Assembly: GCA_000182565.2 (NCBI GenBank)
Contig: KQ257451.1
Direction: 5' to 3' (one strand)
DNA length: 64,000 nt
DNA from: Spizellomyces punctatus DAOM BR117
Taxonomy: Eukaryota
The stretch's first letter is position 1. Each line of letters starts with the position of its first letter. The translations under genes were made by a program, and so were the position numbers. Below are positions 1,233 to 43,370 of the stretch, one piece after another. The notes beneath the pieces are model-generated. The model did no database searches. It saw nothing but the letters and a program-made list of their open reading frames with translations, and was not told where the DNA came from.

Positions 1233-1471
1233 GATACAGTGCTTGGTTGATATTAGATCGAGTGCAGTGGACTGGCAGACTTAACACACTTGCTATGACG
1301 TAAAATGTGGACAATGCACGTGCTCAGTCCAAAAAAGTTAACCCCCTACTTTGCACACTTGCTTGCACCCATTGTGTATTCATTATAATCAACAACTTTC
1401 CATATTTCTTCCTTTAATAGAAATATTACAGGAGCGGACCGCGCGAACGCAATCCCTCCCACCACCAAAAA

Positions 1472-4400
1472 ATGTCCACTCACGCTGACTCCGAAGAGCC
1501 AGGTGACCCCGGGCCTTCGAACTGTTGTGCAATGTCGAGAACCCGAGATAGCCACCGCCTTGTTGATCACGGTAAGCTCGTAGCAGGTAAGTATGCAGGA
1601 ACAGGGAGGGGCGTGGGGACGCGCTGCTTTTATAGACGAGAGCAACTGCGCCACAACTGCGCTTGAAAAATGAAAAAACGCGTTGATTGGCTGAATTTGG
1701 CATCGGAATATTTATCACTGTTGACATGGTGATAGTATTACGACACTCACCCGCTCAAAATAGTTTAATGACGTTGTCGCAGTTTTACCTAAGGATTGGC
1801 CTAGTAATTGTCCCAGTAGATCTCTTCATTCCTTGACGCTCGTTTCTTGCGCTTGAGGGTTGAATTTGCCACCTGGGCAATATAGGGCACGGCACTCTTG
1901 GCTAGCATAGTCACCTACTTGCCCCCTGCAACCGATAGAGTATCAAGCCCGACATAGTTCAATATGACGATGCAAGAAACATTGCGAGAGCAAGTTGGCG
2001 CAGAGCTTGCCCAAGAGCGCTACGAGTGTGCAGTCTGCTATGTTATTATGTACCGTCCTGTTTGGTTTTTAGCCGCTTGCTGGTAGTTCCTATCTGGAAA
2101 TGCGTCTTGCCCTTCATAGCAAAAGATCTGCTCAAATATGGTCTTGCAAGACGTGCTGGAGAGTGCTGCATTTGCACTGCGTTAAGAAATGGGCAAAAGC
2201 ATCTTCCGCGAATTGTTCAGGTCAGAAGCAATTCCCATTTCAGCAACGTTGCCATATCTCAACTCCAAGACATACAGGTCGACAACCAGATCTAGATGTC
2301 CTGTGGCGATGTCCCAGTTGCCAGATGTCCCAGAATACGAGTGCGTTGCAATACCGATGCTTCTGTGGTACGGAGTCTAGGTGTCTGGCCTTAGGCCTGA
2401 TGTGCTCTTCAAAAGCTTTGTACTCATTACGCTTACAGAGAAGAAAGTTTCTCCTGAAGTAAACAATTATCTCATTCCGCACAGGTAAAATCTACTTCTT
2501 GAATTTTACCTGGTCGTACCTTATTTTGCTTGCTCTAGTTGCGGTGATACATGTTCACGGACTCGTCTCCATTGTCCGCATCCCTGCACATCGTAAGAGA
2601 CCTGGCGTCCATCACAACCCATTGTCATACTGATGTAGTTATATTCTGTCGTTCAGTCCTTGTCATCCAGGTGATTGTCCCTTCTTATCTATGATGTAAT
2701 AGCCAGCTACACAGCCAGTAGCTAATGTGTCTGTTGCAGGACCTTGTCCACCTTGTGATCGTCTGGGCTCGCCAGTTTCCTGTTATTGCGGAAAAGCAAA
2801 GTACGTCTCTGGAAAGGACCAGTATTTCTTTTCACAAACTTACGAGAACCTTCAGATACTCTGTGCGCTGCAATGACCTTCGTAACCAGAGCTCTTGTGG
2901 TCAACAATGCGGTGGCTCTTTGCTATGTGGGGCTCACAAGTGCCGTTTGACGTGCCATGAAGGTACGGCGGACAAATACCTCACGATGATAAAAGCAATA
3001 TAAGTTGACTCGTTTGTCAGGCCCATGTCCACCGTGCGAATCTGTTGAGATTCAAAGATGTTATTGCGGGTCCGAAATACGGGAGACGTTGTGCGGTGAA
3101 GGGATTCCATTTGTTTATGCAGATCGCGATACCGGGGTTGAGGATATCCGGCACTTCTCATGTGGTCGTCCCTGCCATTTGTACGTAGTGTTATGCTGTA
3201 TTTCATGCTTTGTTGCCAAAAGGTCCTCATCTCTGGGTATATACAGCACGTTCTCATGTGGAATTCATCGGTGTGAGCAAAATTGTCATCCATTCTCCGA
3301 ACATCCATCGCCGTGCCCGCTAGATCCCACTGTTATGTTTGCGTGTGCTTGTGGAAAGATAAAACGGAATGCACTGTCGATACAGAGCAGGACACATTGC
3401 TCAGATCCACCACTAACTTGCGAGTGAGTAGTATGTGACTAGTGTTGATAACGGCTGATGAATTCATTTCCATGGTGCCTGTCTCGTCATAAAGATCAGC
3501 ATGCCAAAAATTGCTGACATGCGGCCATGTGTGTAATCGACGTTGCCATGCGGATCCATGTGAATCAGTTTTGTGCCCCAAGACAGTGAGTTCATAGCTG
3601 CCTACGGCACGCGTACTTTGCTTGATTCATTACTATCATTTCAGACCATACTCAAATGCCGATGTGGGTCGACAACGCACTGTGTGCCTTGCTGGAAGGT
3701 TAAGCATATGACCACTGGTATGTGTCCCCATTTGATGTAGAGGGGAAGGGTGCTGTGCCAACGTTCTCGTTCTCTTTTGGAAGAGATCCGGTGCGATAAG
3801 CCATGTCACCAACGACTTTCCTGCAAACGACATGAATGCACTATGCGATGTTGTCCAGCGTCCGATGCGGCAGATTCAAATGGCGACCATGTGTGCCTAA
3901 AAGCTTGCGGTCGACCTTTGAAGTGCGGAATTCACAAATGCCAGGTATTGACGGTCTTGTTCATAACGGAACGTACCAGCATTGCTGATCTTCTGATCTT
4001 AGGCGCTCTGTCATCGAGGAAAGTGCCCACCTTGCCCAGAAGCATCGTTTAATGACGTGGCATGCCATTGTGGACGGACAGTCCTGGTGAGCATCTGTAA
4101 GATCTCTATTATCACTTTCCACGGCTATAGTAACGGGGAGCGATTGGTTCAGCGCGCACCAATACCATGTAATACAAAGCCCCCGGAATGTTCACATCCA
4201 TGCATTAGGTACATGATGGACCCGTCGCATGCTTTGTGTGCACATTGCTTATTAGTAAATCGAACATTCAATTTAGGCAGCCAGCATGTGGACATGCAGC
4301 CATTCCTCACCCTTGCCATCTTGATGACGTTCCGTGTCCTCCATGCCCTGTACGTTGGTATCATGGCACGGCATAACACATTGGGGCTGATGACGGTACC

Positions 4401-16815: not shown

Positions 16816-17011
16816 TAGAGATGAATTTGGGTAGATGGGATTAGAATACCCTTCCATGACGTCTATGATACATATATACCTAGTGTAGATGCCTTTGTTA
16901 TATGGTAGATACTTTTTGTTTAGCACTGCGGGTTCGGTGTGCAGCACTCTATGATAAACTGAAAATAATACGGTTTTGTTGATCACATTTGAGACATCGA
17001 GACATTTCTTG

Positions 17012-17146
17012 TTATGTGGGCAATGACAAAAGACAAAACACCAGCGTCCAATGGGTCTGGCGAGTGCCAGCCCGGATAAAGCTAACTAGCTGCTAGACCC
17101 TAATTATGCTTATGCGATATAGAACGGTTGGTCTAACCGGGTAACT
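17012..17146 (-). ncRNA. Diverged omegaRNA-like remnant homologous to the right end of the 40753-41477 element
   Basis: Reverse complement shares AGTTACCCGGTTAGA(c/a)CAACCGT..TAT.GCAT..CTAG..TAGT with 41319-41376, then GCTTTATCC, hairpin GGGCTGGC/GCCAGACCC, ATT..TGGTGT..TTTGTCATTGCC, CACATAA, in the same order as 41405-41479. Confidence 0.55.
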
Positions 17147-22302: not shown

Positions 22303-22688
22303 GCTTGTGCAGTTGTATGGAAACAATGCGGAGCGTGTATTTTCTTGACACGAGCTGTCATGTGGGGATGGGTGATTGTAAAGACCTCTTTCTTTTGCTT
22401 TTATGTTGATTTTAATTGATGATTTTTTTCTACATGGTATTGGATGTATGTTGCCATCTGATGGACATTGCTCATATATACGGAATTTCCAAATCGGCGG
22501 CTGCTGTAAAAAGCTTCTTGTCAAGTGAACGGCAGTGGTATTATAGTGGGCAACTACGTGGATGTATTCTACCGTTTTTTGTGGGACTTGCATTGGGGTT
22601 TTGCCGCTGTTTAATGTCAACGTGGATCCGCAGCTCATCCAGTGGTCGTAATAGCTATGAAGGAAAACACTTTTAGTGAATGTAACCT

Positions 22689-22759
22689 GCATTGGTGGTT
22701 TAGTGGCATAATTACCGCCTGCCACGCGGTAGACCCGAGTTCGATTCTCGGCCAATGCA
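22689..22759 (+). tRNA. tRNA-Gly (GCC)
   Basis: GCATTGG/CCAATGC acceptor stem, anticodon arm ACCGC-CT-GCC-AC-GCGGT, GTTCGATTC T-loop, downstream T-run Pol III terminator near 22778. Confidence 0.95.
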
Positions 22760-24810
22760 TTAGTGTAACACAGGATCTTTTTTTTGTCCAACGGTTGCTG
22801 AAGGGAAAGCCTCTCCGCCCTGTAATGAGCTGCACATGACAAATGAGCTAGTTCCATTTAAAGTCATGAAAGGTTGCCAGCTGGCGATAGTTAGTGGCAG
22901 GGGCAGGGAATAAGCCGAATGCAAACGTTTCTGATGTTCGGGCAAAAGGCGATATGCCCAGAGGTAAACCCTAGCCGTTGAGCAAGAGCTCAGGCGCTGC
23001 AAGAGTGAGATAACTCTATCTGATGACTGCAAATGCCAAAGGCCTAGAGCAGACTCATTGTGGAAGAACATTTGTTGTATTTTTCACTTGATGTAACATG
23101 CATATGTCGACATGGCTTCCAGAATTTGTGAGAATCCCAATTGTGGCATGGAATTGTGTAAAAGGATGGAAAGGGTAAAATTGGTCGGAGGAATGCCGCT
23201 AATCGTGTCTACTGCATCACTTGTCCGTTAAAATGGGTGATTTTCTACCAGTGTGCAGGGGACGCTGCATCTATCCCAGTCCAGATCTGCTTAGGAGAGG
23301 AACGTAGACGAGGAAAGTCTGTAGTAGGAGTCTGACCTAGAGCAAGGACAATGCGATGTGGCCATCCTGACGAGTCCAATAATTCTCATCTGATGGATGG
23401 AAGGTAGGGAGGGTCATCCGGCCTCGCTAGATCTGTCGGTGTATTGATGCAACTTTTGGAGCGGGAGTATACCATGACTCGGAATGGGTATTGTATTGGA
23501 ATAGGCTTTGTGTATATACGCTGTCTTTGTTATTGCAACAGACGTTATGTGTATACGCTTGTGTTTGTTATCTTGGATGATCCTTTGATGAGTTTGGCCC
23601 TCGTTGAACCTGACGATCTGGGGATGTTGGAATATCGTTGACGGGGTTATGAGATACGGAAAAAGCATAGTTGCAAAATGCCCCACGCATCAACGTTTCT
23701 CTTGTATGGTGAATTCGACCATCTTTACTACACCAGCATCCTCACAAAATATGCGCAGCTCATCCCGATGCTCCGCTTTCTCGCCCCCCGCTCCGTTGTC
23801 ATCCGCCGACCTTGACAGGATTTGGCACGATAACTCATTGCAAATTCGTGCTGGCCCAAAATAAGATGCAGATTTTACTGACCAACGGGCGGTAAGCTTG
23901 AGTAAACTTAACCCAAAAGAGCCTGTTGCGTTCATACTGTAAAAGGTGCGCCAGCATACTATTAGAATAAAATGAATGAGGAACGGACTGTCTCTCCCTC
24001 TCTCAAAACTAAGGATCACTATCAAGTAAAACGCATATCATGCATATGGCACCTTATTCTACTCAGGGCCTTTCATGAAATGCTGGTCGATATCATGATG
24101 GACAGGTATGATCCATTTTGCAAAGCCTTGTACTATTTCCCAAGCCCAAAAGTTTTGGGTTCACAAGATACTTAGTTCATAACGTCAAATTTCACAGATG
24201 CCGAACAGAATGGGGAAACCATCGCTCTGTGACTATGAGGCGCTTCATGGAGACGTTTTCAACGTCACTTGATCTCATACTTGGACACGAATGGCATTCT
24301 TACAGAAGTGATAGAGTCCAAGAACAAGGGAATAGAACTGGAAAGAACGTATTGCAGCTCTCAGCATGATCAATCGGGAACATCAAACCTTTTACATCGA
24401 ACTCTCTGGGTATGGCGAAACAGTCTGCAAAGCACATACATTTGTGCATCAGCACCCTGCCTAAACTGTCCAGTTGGATATCAAAGTTTGGTCTCTGCGA
24501 TCTATTTACATGAAGCGACTATCACACGATGATTTTGGTACACAAGAATGGCAGATAGACCATGTCATCCCCGCATCACATATTTCCAAAATTTAACTAT
24601 GTGCACGACTATTCTCCCCCATCAAATGAGGGATGTCGGCAATTACAACTGTCCCCTCCATCAAATGATGGATATCAAGTGCTTTTTGCCGCACGTTTCC
24701 TTGTATCTGCAATATGCGACGCTGCGCAGTAGAAGTTTGTCCGCCACTCCGGACGCGCGTCAATTTCCGAAAGTTAATTAAGAGTATTACTAGGCAACCC
24801 GCATGTCAGC

Positions 24811-29007: not shown

Positions 29008-30000
29008 ATTAGGCGTCCTTCATTGATGTAAAGATAGATAAGGTTAGATGCGAAGTCTGCGATGTGTCTAGAGCATATATTACTGCCTTGGAGATATTTT
29101 ACTTTCAATATTTGTCTAGTTTTCAAGAGAGACAAGCAGATCGATTTCACGGCGTGAAAACACACCTAGAGCAAGCAGCTAGACGGTCTCGTAAGCCTCT
29201 CCGATTGCTTACGCGATTCCTGATTGGTTGCGACCGTCGTCGACCAAGACAAGCTATTTGACAGCCCCTCAAAAAGATATGACGAGACCAAAACGTCCAT
29301 CGCATTTGGCTGTAAGGAGTTTCGTCTCTGCGCTTTGTGTGCAGGAGTTTTGAGAATGGTTTGTCCCTTGCAACGGCATCTGTGCGCTTGCAGGGAGTAA
29401 TGCGCTAGCACACAAGCGTGGCCTACAGTGTGCATTTCTTTTATTTTTTTCACAGCTCTCCACACTTGCTTTGCCAAGTTGGGGAATTCGACTGCCTAAC
29501 TCAAAATTAGCCTTCAGGGCTTTGATTGGCATGTCGACTGTGCCTTGCGTAGAGTGGAGCCGCTGCTTGGAATTTGTTCTCCATTTTCACATGGGCTTTT
29601 TGTCTCCACTGCAAATGACGCAGAGTAAAAGCCTCTGGTTCCCATTTGCTTTTCAACAGTAATTAGTGGTCTGATTCTCGCCAACAAGCTTGGTAAGGAT
29701 CTCCAGTTGAGCAATTCTAATATGGAGTACCTGACTGTGCAACAGCCAACAGGAAGGCTTTGTGTGTGTTTTTCTCACCTTCATCCGTTTTGCGATCGAC
29801 GTTCTGCCCTTTCTGTCTAAGCAGAGACACCTCATCGTACAGAAGGGGTATACAAGCTGTTTGGTACACTCCATTCCATGCAATTCCACCCTACGAACTG
29901 AGCACGGTAATTTGAAGGTACCCGGCATGCCATGCCTCTGGGTGTGGGAAACCAACAGTCAATTCCAATGCATCATACGTTTCTTATCCCTATCTAAATT

Positions 30001-32646
30001 ATGACGGAGGGCGGAAAGTCTTGTGAGCAGGGCTTTGGAAAAGGTGGCATAAGCGGTATTAGCACCCGCCATGGCATTGTTCATCTGTCACTTCAAGAAG
30101 ATGGGAACACATGTCAAAGTGCTTTTAGCCGTCCCCGTCCGGGGGTTTTGACAACGGCCACTTTCCAAAACTGTGGGAATATCCATGAACCAGACAGCAA
30201 GTTTGCTCCTGTCACAGGCTTTGTAACCTCCAATAGTAACCGTTCGCTCCGCGCTCAATCGTCGCAGCTGTCGACACAGCTGGCACAAGGGAAGGAGGAA
30301 TATGGTCAGGGTCACTTTGAGGAGAACGTTAGTAGCACCTCGAGGTTGCAGGACGATGAATTGCCGACCTCGGTACCTACTGGCTCCTCTCTAGGAAAGG
30401 GGGACGACGTGGTCCAGGCAGTAGGGGAAGGCGACCACGTAAAGCAAGGGCCCAAAGCCTGCGAGTCAACCCGCAATCGAGACTCCAATGAGCTTTCTCA
30501 AAACGCAGCTCAGTGCAGCCATTCCTCGTCTTTGCGCTCTTCTCCTTCGCCTGCCCCTGTATGCCAAGATCAAACAACCGTAGGTGCCCCCTTTCCACAG
30601 AGTCGCTTTTATTCCCGCATTGGTTCTTCCCCCCGCTTGCGTCCGGTAACAAATTGTCCGCCGCAACCAATACCAGTAAAAAACTCTCAATCTTCTCATC
30701 CTACCTCGACTCAGCATTCCGACAGCTGCGTCCCCGCATCGTCAAGCAACACCAACTTCTCGGCTACACACTCGATGTACTCTGGCCCTTTATCAATTGC
30801 TCCTAGTGCCGAGACTTTCCTCCTGGACCGTGCCCGACAACGAGGGCTAATGGTAGTATCTCCATTCGACTCCATTTCAACTTTCACGTCATCCGCACAG
30901 TCGCCAGGTTCAGAGCGGGGAATACCGAGCTATCCCGAATCTGGTCTTCATTCTGGATTTGAATCAAGCTCTTCTGTACCTCCAAAGGTATCTGGTGGGT
31001 GGACGTTCGCCTCCATTGCAGCTGGTCCAGTCCGACCGTTGCATACACACGGGTTCATTGAATACTCACCAGAGGACGATATCGAGGAGCGGATCTCACC
31101 AGATAGAGTTCAAGCGGGACGGACCCTGATGAGCATGGGCGGCTACTCCTCCGACTTTTCTGTAGCGTCTACCCCCATATCTACACATCGCACCTGTGAA
31201 GTTGCTTCATCAAATCATCTTAACACCCCGGAGCCGATACGACATGGATGTCTTTTCAAGACAGTTCATCATCCGTATATGGAATGGGGATGCGTTTGTA
31301 GGAGGTAGTGGGTTGGTCGGGAGCTACGGGATATACGACAAAGATATCGAAGAGCGGAAAAGTAAAGGCAAGGAGGCTATCGAAGGAGCTGTAAGTTCTT
31401 TTGAAGTTGAATTTTTTTGCTGTGGTTCATTAATTAACTGCTGTATTCATTCTACGACTAGTCTGGATATAATCCAACGGCAAAGCTGCCAATGCCTGTC
31501 CCGTCGTCAGTAATCCATGAGATTACTTCCAATTCAATGACATATTTTGCGAGGACCGGTATCTTACAACCAAATACAGAGGAGTTGGTAGTAGACGTGG
31601 ATCAACGACTTGAAAATTCGTTCCACCAAACACTAGTGGATATACATCATCTGGGCTTGAAGAGTGAACCAGGACAGGATGAGGTGGACATCAAAGTGGA
31701 AGATTCAGTTCTAAGTTCTGGAGTGCTTATACTCAACAGAAATGCCGGTACGAGGGAAGCAAGGGTGCGAGATCGGTCAATGAACAGGACGCCACAGCTT
31801 AGCGACATTTTAGCGTCCGGCGTCACTTCAATCTCACCTGGAGATAGCCAACTCGGAGCTGCGAGCGCGCACATGCTCGTCTGCGATGAGAACGAGACAA
31901 AGAGCCTAGACGAAGACGACAGAGTCTGCAAGGCTGGCGATGTGACACAGGCCTTTCAAAACCCCGAAGACGATTCTGAAATCCTTTTAATATCCCTTCT
32001 CGAACCCGACCATGTCTTCCAAACCGTTACCAAAGTTGCAGAGTGCCAGCCGGCTAAAGCCACCGCGATAATTGATGCCGAGCTGGACCATCTCCTCACC
32101 ATCATGCATTCCTTGGGGATGAAGGAGGCAGAAATCGCACTATACACGTCAGAGTCAATTCGCGATAGCAAAAGTCGGGAGCAGGATACCGACAGTGAGC
32201 AATATCAAGAGGAGGAAGATTCCGATTATTCGGAACCCAAAGTACGGCGGCAACAGCCCAAATCTCGCAAAAAGCGCAAAACAGACCTAGTTCTCAAAAG
32301 AAACAAAAAAGCGACCGCAATGCCCGCCAAACACAGGTCCATTCGCCGCGATCAGCGTGAATCCTCCGAATCGTCCTTTGCATTCACTACTTCCGAGAGC
32401 GAATCCGAGCCAGAGCCACCCCCAGTAGAGTTCAAAATTCCCCGGTCGCTTAGGGGAAAGGGATATATATGGCAAACACTGTTGCAGGAGCAGGCAGCAG
32501 GATCCAAAAGCCATGTAAATTCGCGTTCGGCAACTTCATCGGCCTCTTCCGGTTCATCTTCTGTCCGCGCTACAAAGCACAGTAAGGGACAAGGAAAACC
32601 TTCTAGGGGAAGGCCCAAAAAGAACAGAGGCAGAGGTCAGCGGTGA
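30001..32646 (+). CDS. Hypothetical low-complexity protein, probably nuclear (ORFs 30001-31308 and 31492-32646 probably joined by splicing)
   Basis: Two long adjacent same-strand ORFs; Ser/acidic-rich with basic NLS-like runs and a terminal RGRPKK AT-hook-like motif. Confidence 0.55.
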
Positions 32647-33103
32647 AGGCGTATTTACTCGCCATATTGCGCGAGTAGGATGTTGCTTGAGAGTATATGA
32701 GAATATTATTTTTGTCTTTGAACATTAGCAGAGTCTTTTAATATACTGCCGCTGTTATCTGCCTGGATCAATGAAAGAATGATGCGTTTTGTTCAAGCGG
32801 TTGGACGATATGCCCCAATAGTTAATACGCTACTTGCAGAGCCAATGTATCTCTTTGTATCTGGTTAAAGAGCATCTCATTAGAATGCTACTTTATTTTT
32901 TGCAAGTTGACAGCCTGCGATCGGCGTTGCTTATGGCAGCGGTGGTCACGTGTACTTTGGATGAGTGTGGGCAATAGCTCGCCATTTTCTGAAAGTCGCC
33001 CTTTGCCTGCTGACGGGTAGGTAGCAAGTTGTGAAGACGAGGGTAATGTTGTAGAATGCTGTCGAGCCACAGACCAAGGAAGGCAGTACAATAACGCAGA
33101 GTC

Positions 33104-36100
33104 ATGCTGCCCACACCTCAGAGTCTTACCCAATCCGATTCTGCACTCTCGTCACCTACCACGATACCCAGCGACTGGCTCCGTTTGAACAATGATGAGC
33201 TCAAGTCACTCATTCGTGAAGAGCTGGTGCACCGCCTGGATGCAGCAATGGCTAAGATGGCAAAGTGGCGCTCAACCATTTCGGCTGCCCTTCACCCAGA
33301 CCATTCGACACCGACTCCCGAAACCATTCGGGCGTACGATATTGACCAGCTAGAAGAGTATGTTGAGAAAGTAGAGATGGAAGAGCAGGAATTGGAGAAA
33401 GCGTTTCTAGTCAAGAAGTTGGGCGCTATGGTGGCTAGAAGGAGTGGCTCGGTGAAACCTCTTGAAGCAACACCGAGCCCAAGAGGAGAGTATCTGGGGC
33501 ATGTAGCTAGAGGGAGCAGTAATGATAATGCGTCGACTGTTGGGAGAGTAGCGATTTTGTCTCTGCCACGTACACAGATGGCAACGACGATAGGTGCCGA
33601 GGGTATCCATGTAGATGAACAGGTAAGGGACCTGTGTCCGCCGCCGGCACCGAGTTCCCAAACACCCAGCGAAAAGCGTTCCAGGAAGCGGTTCGTTATC
33701 ACGTCGAGGGATGAGGAGGACGACGACAGCCAGATAACCGCCGAACCGTCGCTACCTGTTAAGACCGTGGATGTGAAGGTGGAGGAAGCGACGGAGGAAT
33801 TCGATATTGATATCTCATCTGCGTCACCGGGCCTGAGTTTGGCTGAACCTCAACAGCACCCCAGTTCTATGGATGCAGTTGTCGTAGATATAGCCATTGA
33901 CGCGGCCGATGATGATCCTATCATGTCAAAAATACAGAGATTACAAGCGAAATGTCGCACGCCAAAGGTTGAACGCGCTACGACGGATCCCGAGGTGATC
34001 GTCATAGAGGATACTGATGACAAAATGGAAACCATTGGAACTGGTCAGGAGAACGAGCTACCTGCTAGTCAAGAGCCGGATACGCCACCATCAGGAGAGG
34101 CAGCCGAGGAGGACATGAACACACGTGATGATGATATTGCTGTCAAGTCGGAAAGAGAATCCAACTCACCTAAACGCGTTGAGAATGCTAACTTGAAACC
34201 ACATGACGGACACCCCGCGTACGTTCCTTGGAGTGTTCCCAACGGACTGGAAATCAATTCTCTCAGTTTATCTCAAGTCGTGAGAGGGTTATTGTGGCGA
34301 CATTTCCGGCACGGCAATGGTGGATTAAGTGCCAAAAGGATCACCGGTAACTATCATGTTTCATTGGAGCTATTTACATAGATTTCCTTTTGATGATTTT
34401 TGTGATAACAAGGGCTGTGCGTTGAGTATTTTCCCGAGCACATGCAAAGTAAGCAGACAAAGAAAGCCAGAGATAAAGGTATCCGGAAAGCGGTGCGCCG
34501 GTACATCCGAGCATGTGGATTCTGGGACAAGGCTGGGGTTTTCCCACCGAGTTCACATGGTTTGGAGACTCCCATCGTCCAGGCAAAACCCGTAATGTAC
34601 CTCAGTCCGCAATATTACAAGTATTTGAATTCGGATCATGATTTCAATGCGCAAAAGCATCTTTTCGAGCATGTTGACACCCTGACCTGTGCTCGTACAC
34701 CAAAGAACCCTTCGTCTTTGCCCTCTGACCATCCTGAAAGCAATGTGTCTGTTCCAATTGAGCCGGGAACCAGTTGTTCACATCGAAGTCTCGGGCTTGG
34801 GCACAGCTCTAATTTTGATCATACTACCCTACCGGGAGCAGTGCCAATTGAGGTACGACAAGAGCGTGCTTTACCGCAGCCGAAGCGTACTGGTAAGCGA
34901 CCGAATGGCCAAGCCGGGAATTCCCATGGGGACTTGAATGAGATTCCATCTACTCTCGCATCGTCGAATCGATCGAAGAAAAGAAGAAAATCAAAAAAAC
35001 GTCGCGCATCCTCACATGAATCGGACAGTGAAGATGATGATCTTTACACAGAAGAATCGAACGATGATGATCTTTACATAGAAGAATCGAGTGACGCGGA
35101 CACTTGGTTGCCTACGCCTCGCAGAAAACGTGTCAAAGTGGATACCGAAACGTCTGCTAAGCTGCCTCAAACAACTCAGATACCGACTGTGCTCAAACGT
35201 CCATGGTCAGAAAAGTGGACATCGACCAAGCCAATGATTGCCTATACGTACTGGCAGATGTGGAACAAACTCGGTGGAGACAATATTAATACCTACCGCA
35301 ATACAAGCTTTCGTGCTCACCAGAGAAATCTGGTTCCATATGCAGCGCTTGTCAAAGACAAGTGGAACCCCGGCCGCCTTCCGCAATCCGCTCTATTTGC
35401 CAAGGACCCAGGTCAGTCGCTCCCGGAAGCCCTCCAAAAGTGTAAAGAGTGGTGGAAGAGAACTCTTGGGTGGCGATTCAAAACGGGTGCTGTACCAGTG
35501 TTTTGCAACTTGCCGAAAAAGATTGCTGGACTGCAGCTTCCCGCATCTTATTGGCTGTATCTCGGCCCTTGTTATTTGGGTGACGTTCTTGCGAAAACAC
35601 CGTTTGAAGAACTATCGACAGCCAGTCGTGCCGTATGGGAGAAATATTGCGAGCAGGAGGATGTGATGGTGGAGGTGGAGATCTTGCCAAGCTCGGACCC
35701 AGATGACCTTACAATGGAGCAACTGGTTTGTGACGGGGACTGCGTGCGCCGGGCAATAGAAGTATTTGGTGACGAGAGCGTGGGACCTGATAAGGTGGTC
35801 CTCTGCGATTGTACTCCTGGTTTATTCCATCAACGCCATGGGGCCCAAAGTCGGCAGTGTTGTAGTTGGGATTACAAGAATACCAGGTGTGAGTGTTACT
35901 GGCGGACTCGAGAGCAAATTGAGGCAGCCTTTTATCAAGAGTACGGACGGTTCATGAAAAAGGATGCGATTCCTGAATTGGGAGCTAGTGCGACGAATTG
36001 CCTTGGAGGTGGTCCGCAGCCAAATGGGGCCGTCACGCGTGACGGGACACCGGGAGACATTGCTGACGAATGTAAAGAAGAAGAGGACGCAGACGTTTTG

Positions 36101-36394
36101 GTCAAGGACGAGGCGAATGAGGAGGATAGCCAGGATAAGGATCATCAGCCTAATGAGGAGACTCACAACTCGCGGCCTTTGTTTAGCGAAACGCAGCCTA
36201 TTTCCGAGGACGAGTTATTTGTAATTGACAAAATGCCAGCACGGGAGGTAGAACTCTCTGAGCGTCGTGAGGAGATAAACACGTCTACAGAAATAACAGT
36301 CAATGGAGATGAAGCTCCCAAACAGATACCCACCAACGAGAGTCCAAGTTGTCAGGATGAACAAGGGCTGATGCAAGTGGATAAAGTGTCATGA
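33104..36394 (+). CDS. Hypothetical protein of about 1070 aa (intron about 34347-34412)
   Basis: ORFs 33104-34381 and 34442-36394 are in the same frame and are joined by a 66-nt GT..AG intron; NLS-like KKRRKSKKRR; globular segment VPVFC..YWLYLGPCYL..FEELSTASRAVWEKY. Confidence 0.65.
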
Positions 36395-40046: not shown

Positions 40047-40565
40047 AACGACAACACATTACGCTCCTCATTTACTGCTACCCAAACGGAGATGCAGTCC
40101 GATGCTGAGAGATGACAGTCATGTAATGGGGCATGTTGACAAAAGATACCTTGATTTTGATACACACTAATATCGAGTTTGAGTTGTGTATATTTGGTTG
40201 TATTTCTGGGCACACGATCGAGATAAACAATGACGGCACCAAAAGAAAAGACTTCCCCTCTAACCATTTTTCAGCACCCAACTCCCATAGAGACTGCCAG
40301 GACTGCACGAACTAATCACTAGTACAAGAAGCTCGAGTGTCTGCGTTCAAACTAACCTCCTTCAATTTGAAATGCTCCGATTGGCATTCCTATTGCATGA
40401 AACATGAGAAACCAAAAACATAAAGAAACGATAGCTTACAAAAAAAGGTTCGGAATTTACTATTACCCAAAATGACGAAGATATTAAGAAACTCGAAAAT
40501 AAAGAAAAGAACTTGCTTCAACTAACTCCTTTCGAGGAAAAGAAAGGGTTATGCCAGATTTATAG

Positions 40566-40650
40566 CGCTCCCGGCCAGGGTCGAACTGGCAACCTCTCGG
40601 TAGCTAGATATCTAACAGCCGAACGCGCTAACCAATTGCGCCACGGAAGC
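40566..40650 (-). tRNA. tRNA-Asn (GTT) with 11-nt intron
   Basis: Reverse complement GCTTCCGTGGCGCAATTGGTTAGCGCG-TTCGG-CT-GTT-A[gatatctagct]A-CCGAG-AGGTTGCCAGTTCGACCCTGGCCGGGAGCG. Confidence 0.93.
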
Positions 40651-40752
40651 TTGCGAATATAGGACTTGCTATGTATATTATCTATGTAATATGGAATCTA
40701 ATTCATACAAGCAAAATGATTTCCACGAGCATTGTGCAGTGGCCATCGCATA

Positions 40753-41477
40753 GTGTGTGGGCAAAAAGGATTGTCAGTCTGCAGATAGATGCAGCCACTG
40801 GATCGAATGAGATGAAATGCAAAATGCCTTCCTCGATTTAGGCAAATGAAACTATGGGTCGATGCACAAAAGATGCTCCATCATGAGAAAACGGGTCCAA
40901 TATGCGGCCATGAATGACTGCAATTACTATCCCTTGCGGCCATCTGCTTCAGTTGCCACATGCATATCATCAGTTATGACTCAATGTATCCCCTCTTTTT
41001 TCTATATAAACCCCCCCTTGTCTGCCCCCTATCTTGTTCTTTACCCTCGACTCTCAAAGCATCTGCCCAACGTTCAAGTCCATCATGAGAATGCCGCTCT
41101 GGTGCCGAGGACCTCGCCCACCCGACAACAACAACAACATAACCCCTTGCAAACGCTGCTACTACTATACTGCTACGATCGCAGGTATGCATTATCTTTG
41201 TATTTTCCTATGCGTATTCCGAGTCTAATTCCCGTTACCTTAGTATCTGAAAACATCCTCCGACTAAAGAATTTCGGAATCAAGGGCTTAGTAGGATTTC
41301 TCTCGTGGTGGTGGGCTTAGTTACCCGGTTAGAACAACCGTAATGTATTGCATGTGTCATTGGGCCTAGTGGTAGTCGGTTGGTTGTAAGGAGGGAATTA
41401 CTTGGCTTTTCCGAACCGGTTGCCGCCGGTTTATTCCCTGGTGTATTGTGTTGTGACATTTGTTATTGCCAATACAC
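40753..41477 (+). mobile_element. Non-autonomous TIR element (Fanzor1 'ghost'-like MITE) with TA target duplication
   Basis: Left CATA|GTGTGTGGGCAAAAA versus reverse complement of right end CATA|GTGTATTGGCAATAA (16/19 including flanks); TA at 40751-52 and 41478-79; no transposase or RuvC ORF inside. Confidence 0.75.
41085..41320 (+). CDS. Putative 58-aa spliced micro-protein inside the element
   Basis: TATATAAA near 41003, ATG 41085, intron 41185-41243 (GTATGC..CTAAT..TAG); spliced frame stays open to TAG 41318-20. Confidence 0.4.
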
Positions 41478-41495
41478 TATGAACATTAAAAACAA
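41405..41495 (+). ncRNA. Fanzor1 omegaRNA-like guide RNA (about 75-nt scaffold ending CACTA plus about 15-nt flank-derived guide)
   Basis: TTTTCCGAACCGGTTGCCGCCGGTTTATTCCCTGGTG...CACTA resembles the SpuFz1 scaffold as I recall it; stems GAACCGG/CCGGTTT and TGGTGTATTG/CAATACACTA. Confidence 0.75.
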
Positions 41496-41579
41496 ACCGT
41501 AATGTACATGAAAGAGGTTTTCTCATTTCTCTAAAAAATTGTGTACATGATTCTATTTACACACACAAAGTCGATCCAT

Positions 41580-43370
41580 TTACGGTAACACTTTTCTCAT
41601 CCACGGATGCTGCAAAACCTGTTCAGCACTGGGACGCCTATCAGGTGTCTTTTCCAGCATCCAGTCCACCAATTGGAGACATTCTGCGCTCGTCTGCATC
41701 TTTGGTGGCTTGTATCCACTGGCCATGGCTTCCTCGCTGCTGGAAAAGGGACATTCGCCGTGTAACATGGTGTACAGGAGGACGCCCATGGCCCAAATAT
41801 CAGAAGGTCGGCCCTTGTATCGTTCTCCTCTGAGGATTTCGGGTGAAGCGTATTGGAGAGTTCCTTGGAAGCGGTCAAAGAGCTGCGACTTTTTGTGAGA
41901 GGGTTCAAAGGCAGCTGACCCGAAATCGATGATTTTAACGTGGAGGTTCGAGTCAATGACAATATTTTCGTCCTTCAAGTCGCGGTGAACGATGCCACGA
42001 GAGTGAAGGTATGCTACAGCTTCGGCGATTTGACGAAAGACGTGCCTAGCATGGCGTTCTGGAAGGTGAGCGTTTTGCTCAATGCACTCAAAGAGGTCCA
42101 TGGAAGGTTTGCGAGCAAGTTTGGGAGGTAGCGGGACGGATTGGGTGCGAGCCATGGGTGGCGGTGAAGGGAGGGAGCGAGGGGCCGGTGTGGAAGAAAG
42201 TGTTGGGTTGGAGAGTTGTCGTACCCGGTGAGGAGGAGAAGGCGATACTTGCTCGGCGCCACCGGTTTCTTCACATATTACCCTTGCGATGGCTGGATGA
42301 CGACAAGTCGCAGTCGCAGCTGTAGGGGAACTAGGTGGAGAATGGTGTCCATTAGAGATGAACTCGTTTTCCTTCTTTTCTGGCGGATCGATTTCTTCCG
42401 GGATCGTGTCCACTTGAGCACGTGCTGCTTCAGCAGCCTTGGCAAGGTGCATGGCATCTTTGCGGTCCTTTTCATCTATAAAAGCATTGTCCGTAGCACT
42501 CCACTGGGTTCCATGCATCTCCATCACCAAATAGCCAAACCGCTCGTCTTCGAAAAAATCTTCAAATGCAATCACATTTGGATGGTTGCAACGCCGGACC
42601 AGATACACTTCCATTGGCATGACGCCAAGTTCTCGATCTCGTGCCCACGCAGATACGGGGATTCTCCGCTTTAGGATCAATTTTACGGCCACTTCCTTCC
42701 GGTCCTTTATACGAGTAGCCGCTAGAACATGGCCGAATCCGCCCGAACCCAGCTCAGCGGTGACTTGGTAGCGAGCCAAAAAAGCAGCATTGAGAGGGTA
42801 CTTGTTCAACAGACGTTGAAGAGGAGATGTATCGTCATTTGAAAGGGAAGATCTCGACTTTTGTTGTTGTTTAGGAGGCGGTGTTGCTGGTGAGCGAGCG
42901 ATGCGTGCGGTAGGACTGGAGGGACGAGATACGGATTGCGGTGTAACGGGCATGGAGGATGGAGGTTTTTTAACGAAGGGCAAAGTGGCAGTAGTCGCAG
43001 CAGTAGCAGTCGAAGGAGGAAGAGGATTTGGAGTCGATACAGGCGATGAGGGTGCGGTTGAGCCTTTAATGTCTTGCGCGCTCTGTGCACGCTGTGGACC
43101 CTCGGCAGTAACCGGCCCGTGAGCAGCAGCAGCAGAAGAAAGAGGCTGCCCTTGTCCCCCGGTTGCCTTGAGCTGTGGCCGCGAGTTGAAGAATTGTCGG
43201 ATTAAACCCTTTTTCGTCAGTTGAGGGCTAGTGTACGGAGACGTTGTCGTTGCCGTGTTCAGCATGGATGGCTGTGATCCACCATAACATCCTCTAGTGT
43301 ACTGATTCGAAGGTTGATGCGGTAACGGGCTCAGGGAAGTTGGGTGATGAAGGGAAGTGCTGGGCGGCAT
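41580..43370 (-). CDS. Ser/Thr protein kinase (PASK/PIM-like, CAMK group), intronless, with a large insert in the kinase domain
   Basis: LGSGGFG, VAVK, MDLFECIE, HRDLKDEN, IIDFGSA, FQGTLQYASPE, DIWAMGV. Confidence 0.93.
   Translation of the reverse strand: MPPSTSLHHPTSLSPLPHQPSNQYTRGCYGGSQPSMLNTATTTSPYTSPQLTKKGLIRQFFNSRPQLKATGGQGQPLSSAAAAHGPVTAEGPQRAQSAQDIKGSTAPSSPVSTPNPLPPSTATAATTATLPFVKKPPSSMPVTPQSVSRPSSPTARIARSPATPPPKQQQKSRSSLSNDDTSPLQRLLNKYPLNAAFLARYQVTAELGSGGFGHVLAATRIKDRKEVAVKLILKRRIPVSAWARDRELGVMPMEVYLVRRCNHPNVIAFEDFFEDERFGYLVMEMHGTQWSATDNAFIDEKDRKDAMHLAKAAEAARAQVDTIPEEIDPPEKKENEFISNGHHSPPSSPTAATATCRHPAIARVICEETGGAEQVSPSPPHRVRQLSNPTLSSTPAPRSLPSPPPMARTQSVPLPPKLARKPSMDLFECIEQNAHLPERHARHVFRQIAEAVAYLHSRGIVHRDLKDENIVIDSNLHVKIIDFGSAAFEPSHKKSQLFDRFQGTLQYASPEILRGERYKGRPSDIWAMGVLLYTMLHGECPFSSSEEAMASGYKPPKMQTSAECLQLVDWMLEKTPDRRPSAEQVLQHPWMRKVLP

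Follow-up and report, generated by a model that had tools for sequence, protein, structure and literature searches.

A very probable member of the ghost Spu-1 family in Spizellomyces punctatus: element ends, right-end omegaRNA scaffold and family transcription

The window analysed here, that is, the whole stretch of 64,000 nt taken from contig KQ257451.1 of Spizellomyces punctatus DAOM BR117 (GCA_000182565.2), contains at positions 40749-41481 a short element that carries no nuclease gene and whose right end resembles the scaffold of a nuclease guide RNA. This raises the question of what kind of element it is and whether it can still supply a guide. An initial annotation, made without database searches, had read it as a trans-acting ghost guide locus and, unless this genome had already been examined, as a new Fanzor1/omegaRNA variant. 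The kind of element proposed there stands, as regards the lack of a nuclease, the ends, the TA flanks and the two-stem architecture of SpuFz1 type. The novelty does not stand: the genome has been examined, the family was described in S. punctatus DAOM BR117 in 2023, its scaffolds have since been re-catalogued (PMC13434818), and the element is not new.

The published account puts the number of Fz loci in S. punctatus at 42 and that of 'ghost Spu-1' loci at 134 (Saito et al., 2023; PMC10432273). Ghost loci have no ORF and are bounded by 30-nt inverted repeats which differ from the repeats of Fz loci at seven positions; they keep (i) CA upstream of the 5' inverted repeat; (ii) a conserved interior of ~550 nt; and (iii) a 75-nt right-end region similar to that of the Fz loci (PMC10432273). 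[quoted passage not shown] Ghost Spu-1 is a non-autonomous, inverted-repeat, TA-flanked transposon in which the Fanzor gene is absent and the right-end omegaRNA gene has been kept, and the element at 40749-41481 is, with high confidence, a member of this family.

The S. punctatus element measures 733 bp, and its imperfect inverted ends can be read directly from the sequence. Both direct reading and a repeat search place these ends, with TA on both sides, where the initial annotation had put them: the left end, CATAGTGTGTGGGCAAAAA, begins at 40749 and the right end, TTATTGCCAATACACTATG, finishes at 41481. The flanks are CA-TA at the left and TA-TG at the right, the two TA lying at 40751-40752 and 41478-41479, and the general layout is CA-TA-GTGTGTGGGCAAAAAGG ... 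TTATTGCCAATACAC-TA-TG, with CA/TG outside the TA at both ends (CA-TA-GTGTG ... CACAC-TA-TG). The features of the element are listed below.

40749-40776, plus strand: left inverted end, including CA (40749-40750) and TA (40751-40752), which together form CATA, the SpuFz1 TAM.
40777-41404, plus strand: element interior, without a nuclease remnant.
41003-41010, plus strand: TATA-like box TATATAAA, upstream of the onset of plus RNA coverage; putative promoter element.
41185-41243, plus strand: 59-nt GT..AG intron, spliced from the plus RNA of the family.
41405-41479, plus strand: omegaRNA scaffold, placed by its fold and by the published description; overlaps the right inverted end.
41454-41481, plus strand: right inverted end, ...CAATACAC-TA-TG, placed by repeat search; the family boundary at 41479 comes from diverging reads.
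41480-41494, plus strand: predicted 15-nt guide TGAACATTAAAAACA, derived from the flank and placed by analogy with the published 14-15-nt extension.

In the repeat search, the inverted repeat extends to 28 nt with 79% complementarity (40749-40776 against 41454-41481), leaving 677 nt between the arms; the second-longest inverted pair within the same 1,051-nt region reaches 16 nt. As a control, a 7-kb region in which the arms could be as much as 4 kb apart was searched and contained a 25-nt inverted pair at 76%; the 28-nt repeat is, by itself, not beyond chance. When the 17-nt end was searched for at up to 3 mismatches, three matches were obtained in the window against 0.23 expected: the two ends of the element, and a match within a coiled-coil ORF, attributed to chance. 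The right boundary is independently confirmed, since RNA reads of other copies diverge exactly behind 41479 (these reads are described below). As to the interior, its length exceeds the published ~550 nt, which would suit a new Fanzor1/omegaRNA family variant in an unexamined genome. That reading is highly improbable: the host genome is that of S. punctatus DAOM BR117, where ghost loci have been published, and every testable defining feature of the published ghost loci is present in the element.

The element had been proposed to be nuclease-free, and the searches agree: it overlaps six stop-to-stop ORFs of 60 aa or longer, and at E<=1 Pfam returned no family for any of them. In a comparison with solved structures, a collection that should contain SpuFz1 according to PMC10432273, neither the 156-aa ORF nor the 33-aa first-exon peptide (ATG at 41085) had a relative, apart from one match at chance level (E 1.6). 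As for the rest of the window, no TnpB or Fanzor family was detected by Pfam in the set of 10 of the 15 ORFs of at least 300 aa; the five ORFs outside this set are a fungalysin-like ORF, a coiled-coil ORF, a kinase, a 1,047-aa ORF and a 1,306-aa ORF. Two ORFs have a Fanzor-like size: the 661-aa ORF found no match among the solved structures, and the 605-aa ORF corresponds to a C2H2 zinc-finger protein in the same comparison. Since a Fanzor-like match is absent from the window ORFs tested, the nuclease, if any, would be encoded elsewhere. Four long stop-to-stop ORFs (436, 394, 428 and 661 aa) without a Pfam family occur at 29998-36394 on the plus strand.

The scaffold published for SpuFz1 comprises 75 nt arranged in two stems and a 6-nt linker (A29-C34); its last base is A75, and a 15-nt guide then starts at U76 (PMC10432273). 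The distal stem 2 (C40-G70) is dispensable for SpuFz1 activity, and the stem 2 of ghost loci has a 3-nt bulge (PMC10432273). In the element, the minimum-energy fold of 41405-41479 on the plus strand reaches -27.2 kcal/mol (z -5.89), with none of 200 shuffles as good; for the opposite strand the z value is -1.96 and 9 of 200 shuffles are as good. The fold consists of (i) stem 1, in which 41413-41420 pairs with 41425-41432 (8 bp, 4-nt loop); (ii) a single-stranded linker of 6 nt, AUUCCC, at 41433-41438; and (iii) a long stem 2 occupying 41439-41479 and closed by UGGUGUAUUG/CAAUACACUA, for which a 1-nt bulge, a 1x1 internal loop and a 4-nt hairpin loop are predicted. Two right-end stems singled out earlier, GAACCGG/CCGGTTT and the 10-bp stem TGGTGTATTG/CAATACACTA, are both contained in this structure, which remains unchanged in the centroid structure when 15 nt of flank are added. 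Furthermore, the 6-nt linker runs from A to C and the scaffold ends in A followed by U, in agreement with the published A29-C34, A75 and U76. The complementarity that had been pointed out between AGGGAAT (41392-41398) and ATTCCCT (41433-41439) is also real, and the corresponding AGGGAAU and AUUCCCU pair in the predicted precursor fold (41380-41494). Because the linker is protein-bound in the mature particle (PMC10432273), this pairing could be a structure of the precursor only.

A search with 41380-41520 returned 12 RNA runs, four of which (X10, X4, X12 and X1) were compared with positions 40650-41600 at 97% similarity; two soil metatranscriptome runs, X2 and X3, contained 0.25 of 8 sampled words and were left out of the comparison. 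Run X10 consists of raw reads of up to 60 letters, of which approximately 6 in every 100 were read; it placed 62,201 reads, almost all in the plus direction. As many as 61,458 of these fit only partly, which implies that most of them come from other copies. Plus depth is 0 in the bins covering 40906-41033, rises to 27.9 at 41034-41065 and to 1,389.5 at 41066-41097, peaks at 17,767.7 (41290-41321) and 17,903.5 (41450-41481), and beyond the element drops to 134.2 in 41482-41513, with no plus coverage from 41514 onwards. The value of 134.2 is close to what chance extension of reads from other copies would give, according to an estimate, and is not assignable to the element copy. Minus-direction depth within 41066-41481 does not exceed 116.9. 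That the plus direction of X10 corresponds to the sense of the RNA follows from two observations: the 3' end of the neighbouring kinase gene, which lies on the minus strand (41514-41600), has minus coverage only (26-43 vs 0), and the splice joints described below have their GT..AG ends on the plus strand. Reads of other copies span 41066-41481 at no less than 97%, and transcription of the family is strong on the strand of the omegaRNA. In X10, neither a start nor an end of a ~90-nt RNA molecule is resolved. Runs X12 and X1 had no reads matching 40650-41600, a result that is no proof of absence. A low antisense coverage was also observed over the left half of the element (40842-41033), with a minus depth of 9-28 and a plus depth of 0-3.

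The same data bear on where the similarity between copies stops. Directly behind 41479, 6,203 X10 reads continue with letters unlike those of the window, and a 481-letter contig from run X4 matches 41433-41479 and then goes on for 255 unlike letters. The last base of the predicted scaffold is therefore where copies cease to resemble one another, in agreement with the published account of the family, and the expectation of the initial annotation that conservation would end at CACTA, with variable 3' flanks, is borne out.

The resemblance to the canonical RNA was assessed through the 19 nucleotides that PMC10432273 names by position, a comparison that stood in for a full alignment to the canonical RNA sequence. 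If a single 1-nt gap is allowed, located between positions 22 and 29, 15 of the 19 fit, whereas U18, G22, C40 and G70 do not. Of the 383,460 placements over the window and both strands, no other fits as well, and the comparison discriminates weakly: three chance placements reach 14, and 32 reach at least 13. The element has U at position 40 and A at position 70, and the fold pairs these two bases, which would represent a compensated change if the canonical C40 and G70 pair.

At this point, another possibility has to be weighed: a miniature inverted-repeat transposon that has nothing to do with Fanzor and whose right end simply happens to fold well. No Fanzor gene appears in the window among the ORFs tested, and Rfam gives the element no family, either at the gathering score (whole window) or at E<=10 (40700-41550), both of which would be compatible with such a transposon. 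It is, however, extremely improbable. The SpuFz1 system was defined in the species that hosts the element; the published description agrees with the element in architecture, linker, terminal bases, CA/TA flanks and the logic of the TAM; and the family is transcribed on the expected strand, its similarity ending at the expected base.

Membership of the ghost Spu-1 family leaves aside whether this particular copy is active. Position 41423 is C in the element copy, while family RNA reads have T in 1,879 of 1,911 cases and C in the other 32. It corresponds to U18, a loop base that contacts the protein in PMC10432273, and this may make the element copy a weakened or inactive variant. A ghost-family member that has become a dead relic would be transcribed, or co-mapped with its relatives, and its RNA would not be loaded or would not guide cleavage. 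This possibility is held with somewhat less than even confidence. Apart from the minority C at the protein-contacting position, it gains from a stem-loop 1 that appears one nucleotide shorter than the canonical one, from the lack of any X10 read assignable to the element copy, and from the report that ghost scaffolds farther from the canonical one edit less well (PMC13434818). Against it, both stems and the linker are intact within a strong fold, as are the CA-TA that forms the TAM and the terminal ...CACTA. Besides, the length is normal for the family: the 2026 catalogue comprises 126 unique ghost scaffolds of 74-76 nt, of which representatives were tested (PMC13434818). Four ghost-locus scaffolds, used with SpuFz1 in human cells, gave editing comparable to that of the best canonical designs (PMC10432273).

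With regard to how the family RNA is made, plus coverage sets in ~30-60 nt downstream of the TATA-like box, and X10 reads reveal three splice forms within the interior: (i) 12 reads join 41182/41184 to 41242/41244 with GT..AG ends, which is the form of the element copy; (ii) 98 reads join 41184 to 41252; and (iii) 3 reads join 41184 to 41257. The second form derives from copies that are two A's shorter directly after the intron, since 95 of its 98 reads carry the six letters that come after the intron. Depth in the intron bin 41194-41225 falls to 1.84, compared with 345.7 before it and 526.2 after it. In consonance with these data, transcription of the family seems to begin within the element itself and to give a spliced RNA with the omegaRNA as its 3' end. 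Transcription would start ~30-60 nt past the TATA-like box, the 59-nt intron would then be removed, and the omegaRNA would finally be cut from the 3' end of a precursor of ~400 nt. On this basis, ghost Spu-1 elements may be self-contained guide-RNA genes and not passive leftovers, their conserved interior representing a promoter and a spliced leader; this interpretation is proposed tentatively, at a little under even confidence.

A short ORF across the intron (~58 codons, with the ATG of exon 1 at 41085) was also considered and is unlikely to be a gene: no relatives of its first exon were found and, in the copies 2 nt shorter just after the splice site, which account for 98 of the 113 splice-joint reads, its frame would shift.

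Regarding the published record, native small RNAs have been reported for four Fz loci (PMC10432273), and the word 'intron' is not mentioned in the main text of that paper, whose supplements may say more. Native, spliced expression of ghost loci would add to the record in print, unless those supplements cover it. An interior start combined with splicing, if confirmed, would indicate how a eukaryote makes guide RNAs without the promoter of the nuclease gene.

What such a guide might do can be outlined from the literature on SpuFz1. This nuclease, encoded at other loci, is described as binding 75-nt scaffolds of this type, the 14-15 nt that follow acting as the guide; the complex cuts double-stranded DNA in which a sequence matching this guide comes directly after CATA (PMC10432273). 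The TAM is 5'-CATA, and any change in it abolishes cleavage (PMC10432273). In the case of the element copy, an RNA from 41405-41494 would carry the predicted guide TGAACATTAAAAACA. While the site is occupied, the guide target is directly preceded by ACTA, and these four bases do not constitute a TAM. When the left CA-TA is placed against the right flank, CATA comes to stand before the target, and removal of the element would therefore leave a TAM beside the flank-derived guide target, just as the initial annotation had deduced. In a search for the joined CATA-target motif, only the occupied site matched, with 2 mismatches. It can be envisaged that, where the element is absent or has been excised, CATA would be re-formed beside the target by the joint CA-TA-TG...; that a nuclease supplied in trans would cut the empty allele only; and that repair from the occupied copy would restore the element. 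Such nuclease-driven restoration would amount to the homing-type retention proposed for TnpB. Mobilisation, for its part, would need a transposase in trans, and PMC10432273 states that no transposase was found within Spu-1 elements. The chance that the element copy still yields a working guide RNA is judged to fall just short of even.

From a practical point of view, ghost loci broaden the set of guides usable by a Fanzor nuclease and are a source of compact scaffolds that have been engineered for genome editing. One further copy in the genome that defined the family adds nothing to that guide repertoire or to those scaffolds.

Elsewhere in the window, no other copy of the end or the scaffold was found at up to 3 mismatches. 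With a single element copy in the window, the multi-copy status of the family is drawn from the RNA reads and the literature. Low-stringency blastn returned only one match, a decayed relative of the right part of the element at 16995-17146 (minus strand), located between the fungalysin-like ORF (named by eye) and the coiled-coil ORF. It shares with 41322-41344 a 23-nt block in which 22 positions are identical, and has a hairpin resembling stem 1 made of different letters; stem 2 and the ...CACTA end are gone, and its fold has a z of -0.54. Neither an inverted partner nor a Fanzor ORF was found near this relative. Among metagenome contigs, no matches were obtained for a pattern of the 5' part of the scaffold with four free positions, or for the two halves of stem 2 separated by a variable gap.

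On its right side, the element adjoins a minus-strand ORF (41583-43367) that encodes a protein kinase, with a 596-aa match 100% identical over the full query; the match from Spizellomyces sp. 'palustris' is 87% identical, and a paralogue is annotated as CAMK/CAMKL/PASK protein kinase [Spizellomyces punctatus DAOM BR117]. On its left side lies a tRNA-Asn(GTT) gene with an 11-nt intron (40565-40650, minus strand), whose 5' end is 99 bp from the left end of the element; it was found by ARAGORN with introns allowed and was missed both by the default tRNA scan and by Rfam at the gathering score. A U1 spliceosomal RNA gene (1431-1594, minus strand) and a tRNA-Gly(GCC) gene (22688-22760, plus strand) are also present in the window.

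Finally, the element can be compared with three known systems. It resembles the bacterial IS200/IS605 TnpB-omegaRNA arrangement in that a right-end guide RNA reads into the flank and the TAM lies beside the left end, only the empty site being targetable. It differs from it in its eukaryotic host, its inverted ends with TA flanks, the lack of a known TnpA and the nuclease acting in trans; in addition, the SpuFz1 omegaRNA is described as having no pseudoknot, unlike that of IS200/IS605 TnpB (PMC10432273). With canonical SPu-1 it shares the terminal inverted repeats, the putative TA target-site duplications and the right-end omegaRNA architecture, together with the 15 of 19 named nucleotides that fit. 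Canonical Spu-1 is ~2.1 kb long and has one ORF, given as 633 aa by Bao and Jurka (2013; PMC3627910) and as residues 1-638 by Saito et al. (2023; PMC10432273), whereas the element has 733 bp and no nuclease remnant. The closest system is ghost Spu-1 itself, with which the element has in common (i) the S. punctatus host; (ii) inverted ends of ~30 nt; (iii) CA upstream of the left end; (iv) the absence of a Fanzor ORF; (v) a 75-nt two-stem scaffold over the right end; (vi) a flank-derived guide; and (vii) the logic of the CATA TAM. The differences consist of an interior of ~677 nt versus the published ~550 nt, the minority C at the position of U18, and a predicted 1-nt bulge in the distal stem 2 versus the published 3-nt bulge. 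None of them is essential, and the element has the make-up of a ghost Spu-1 locus.
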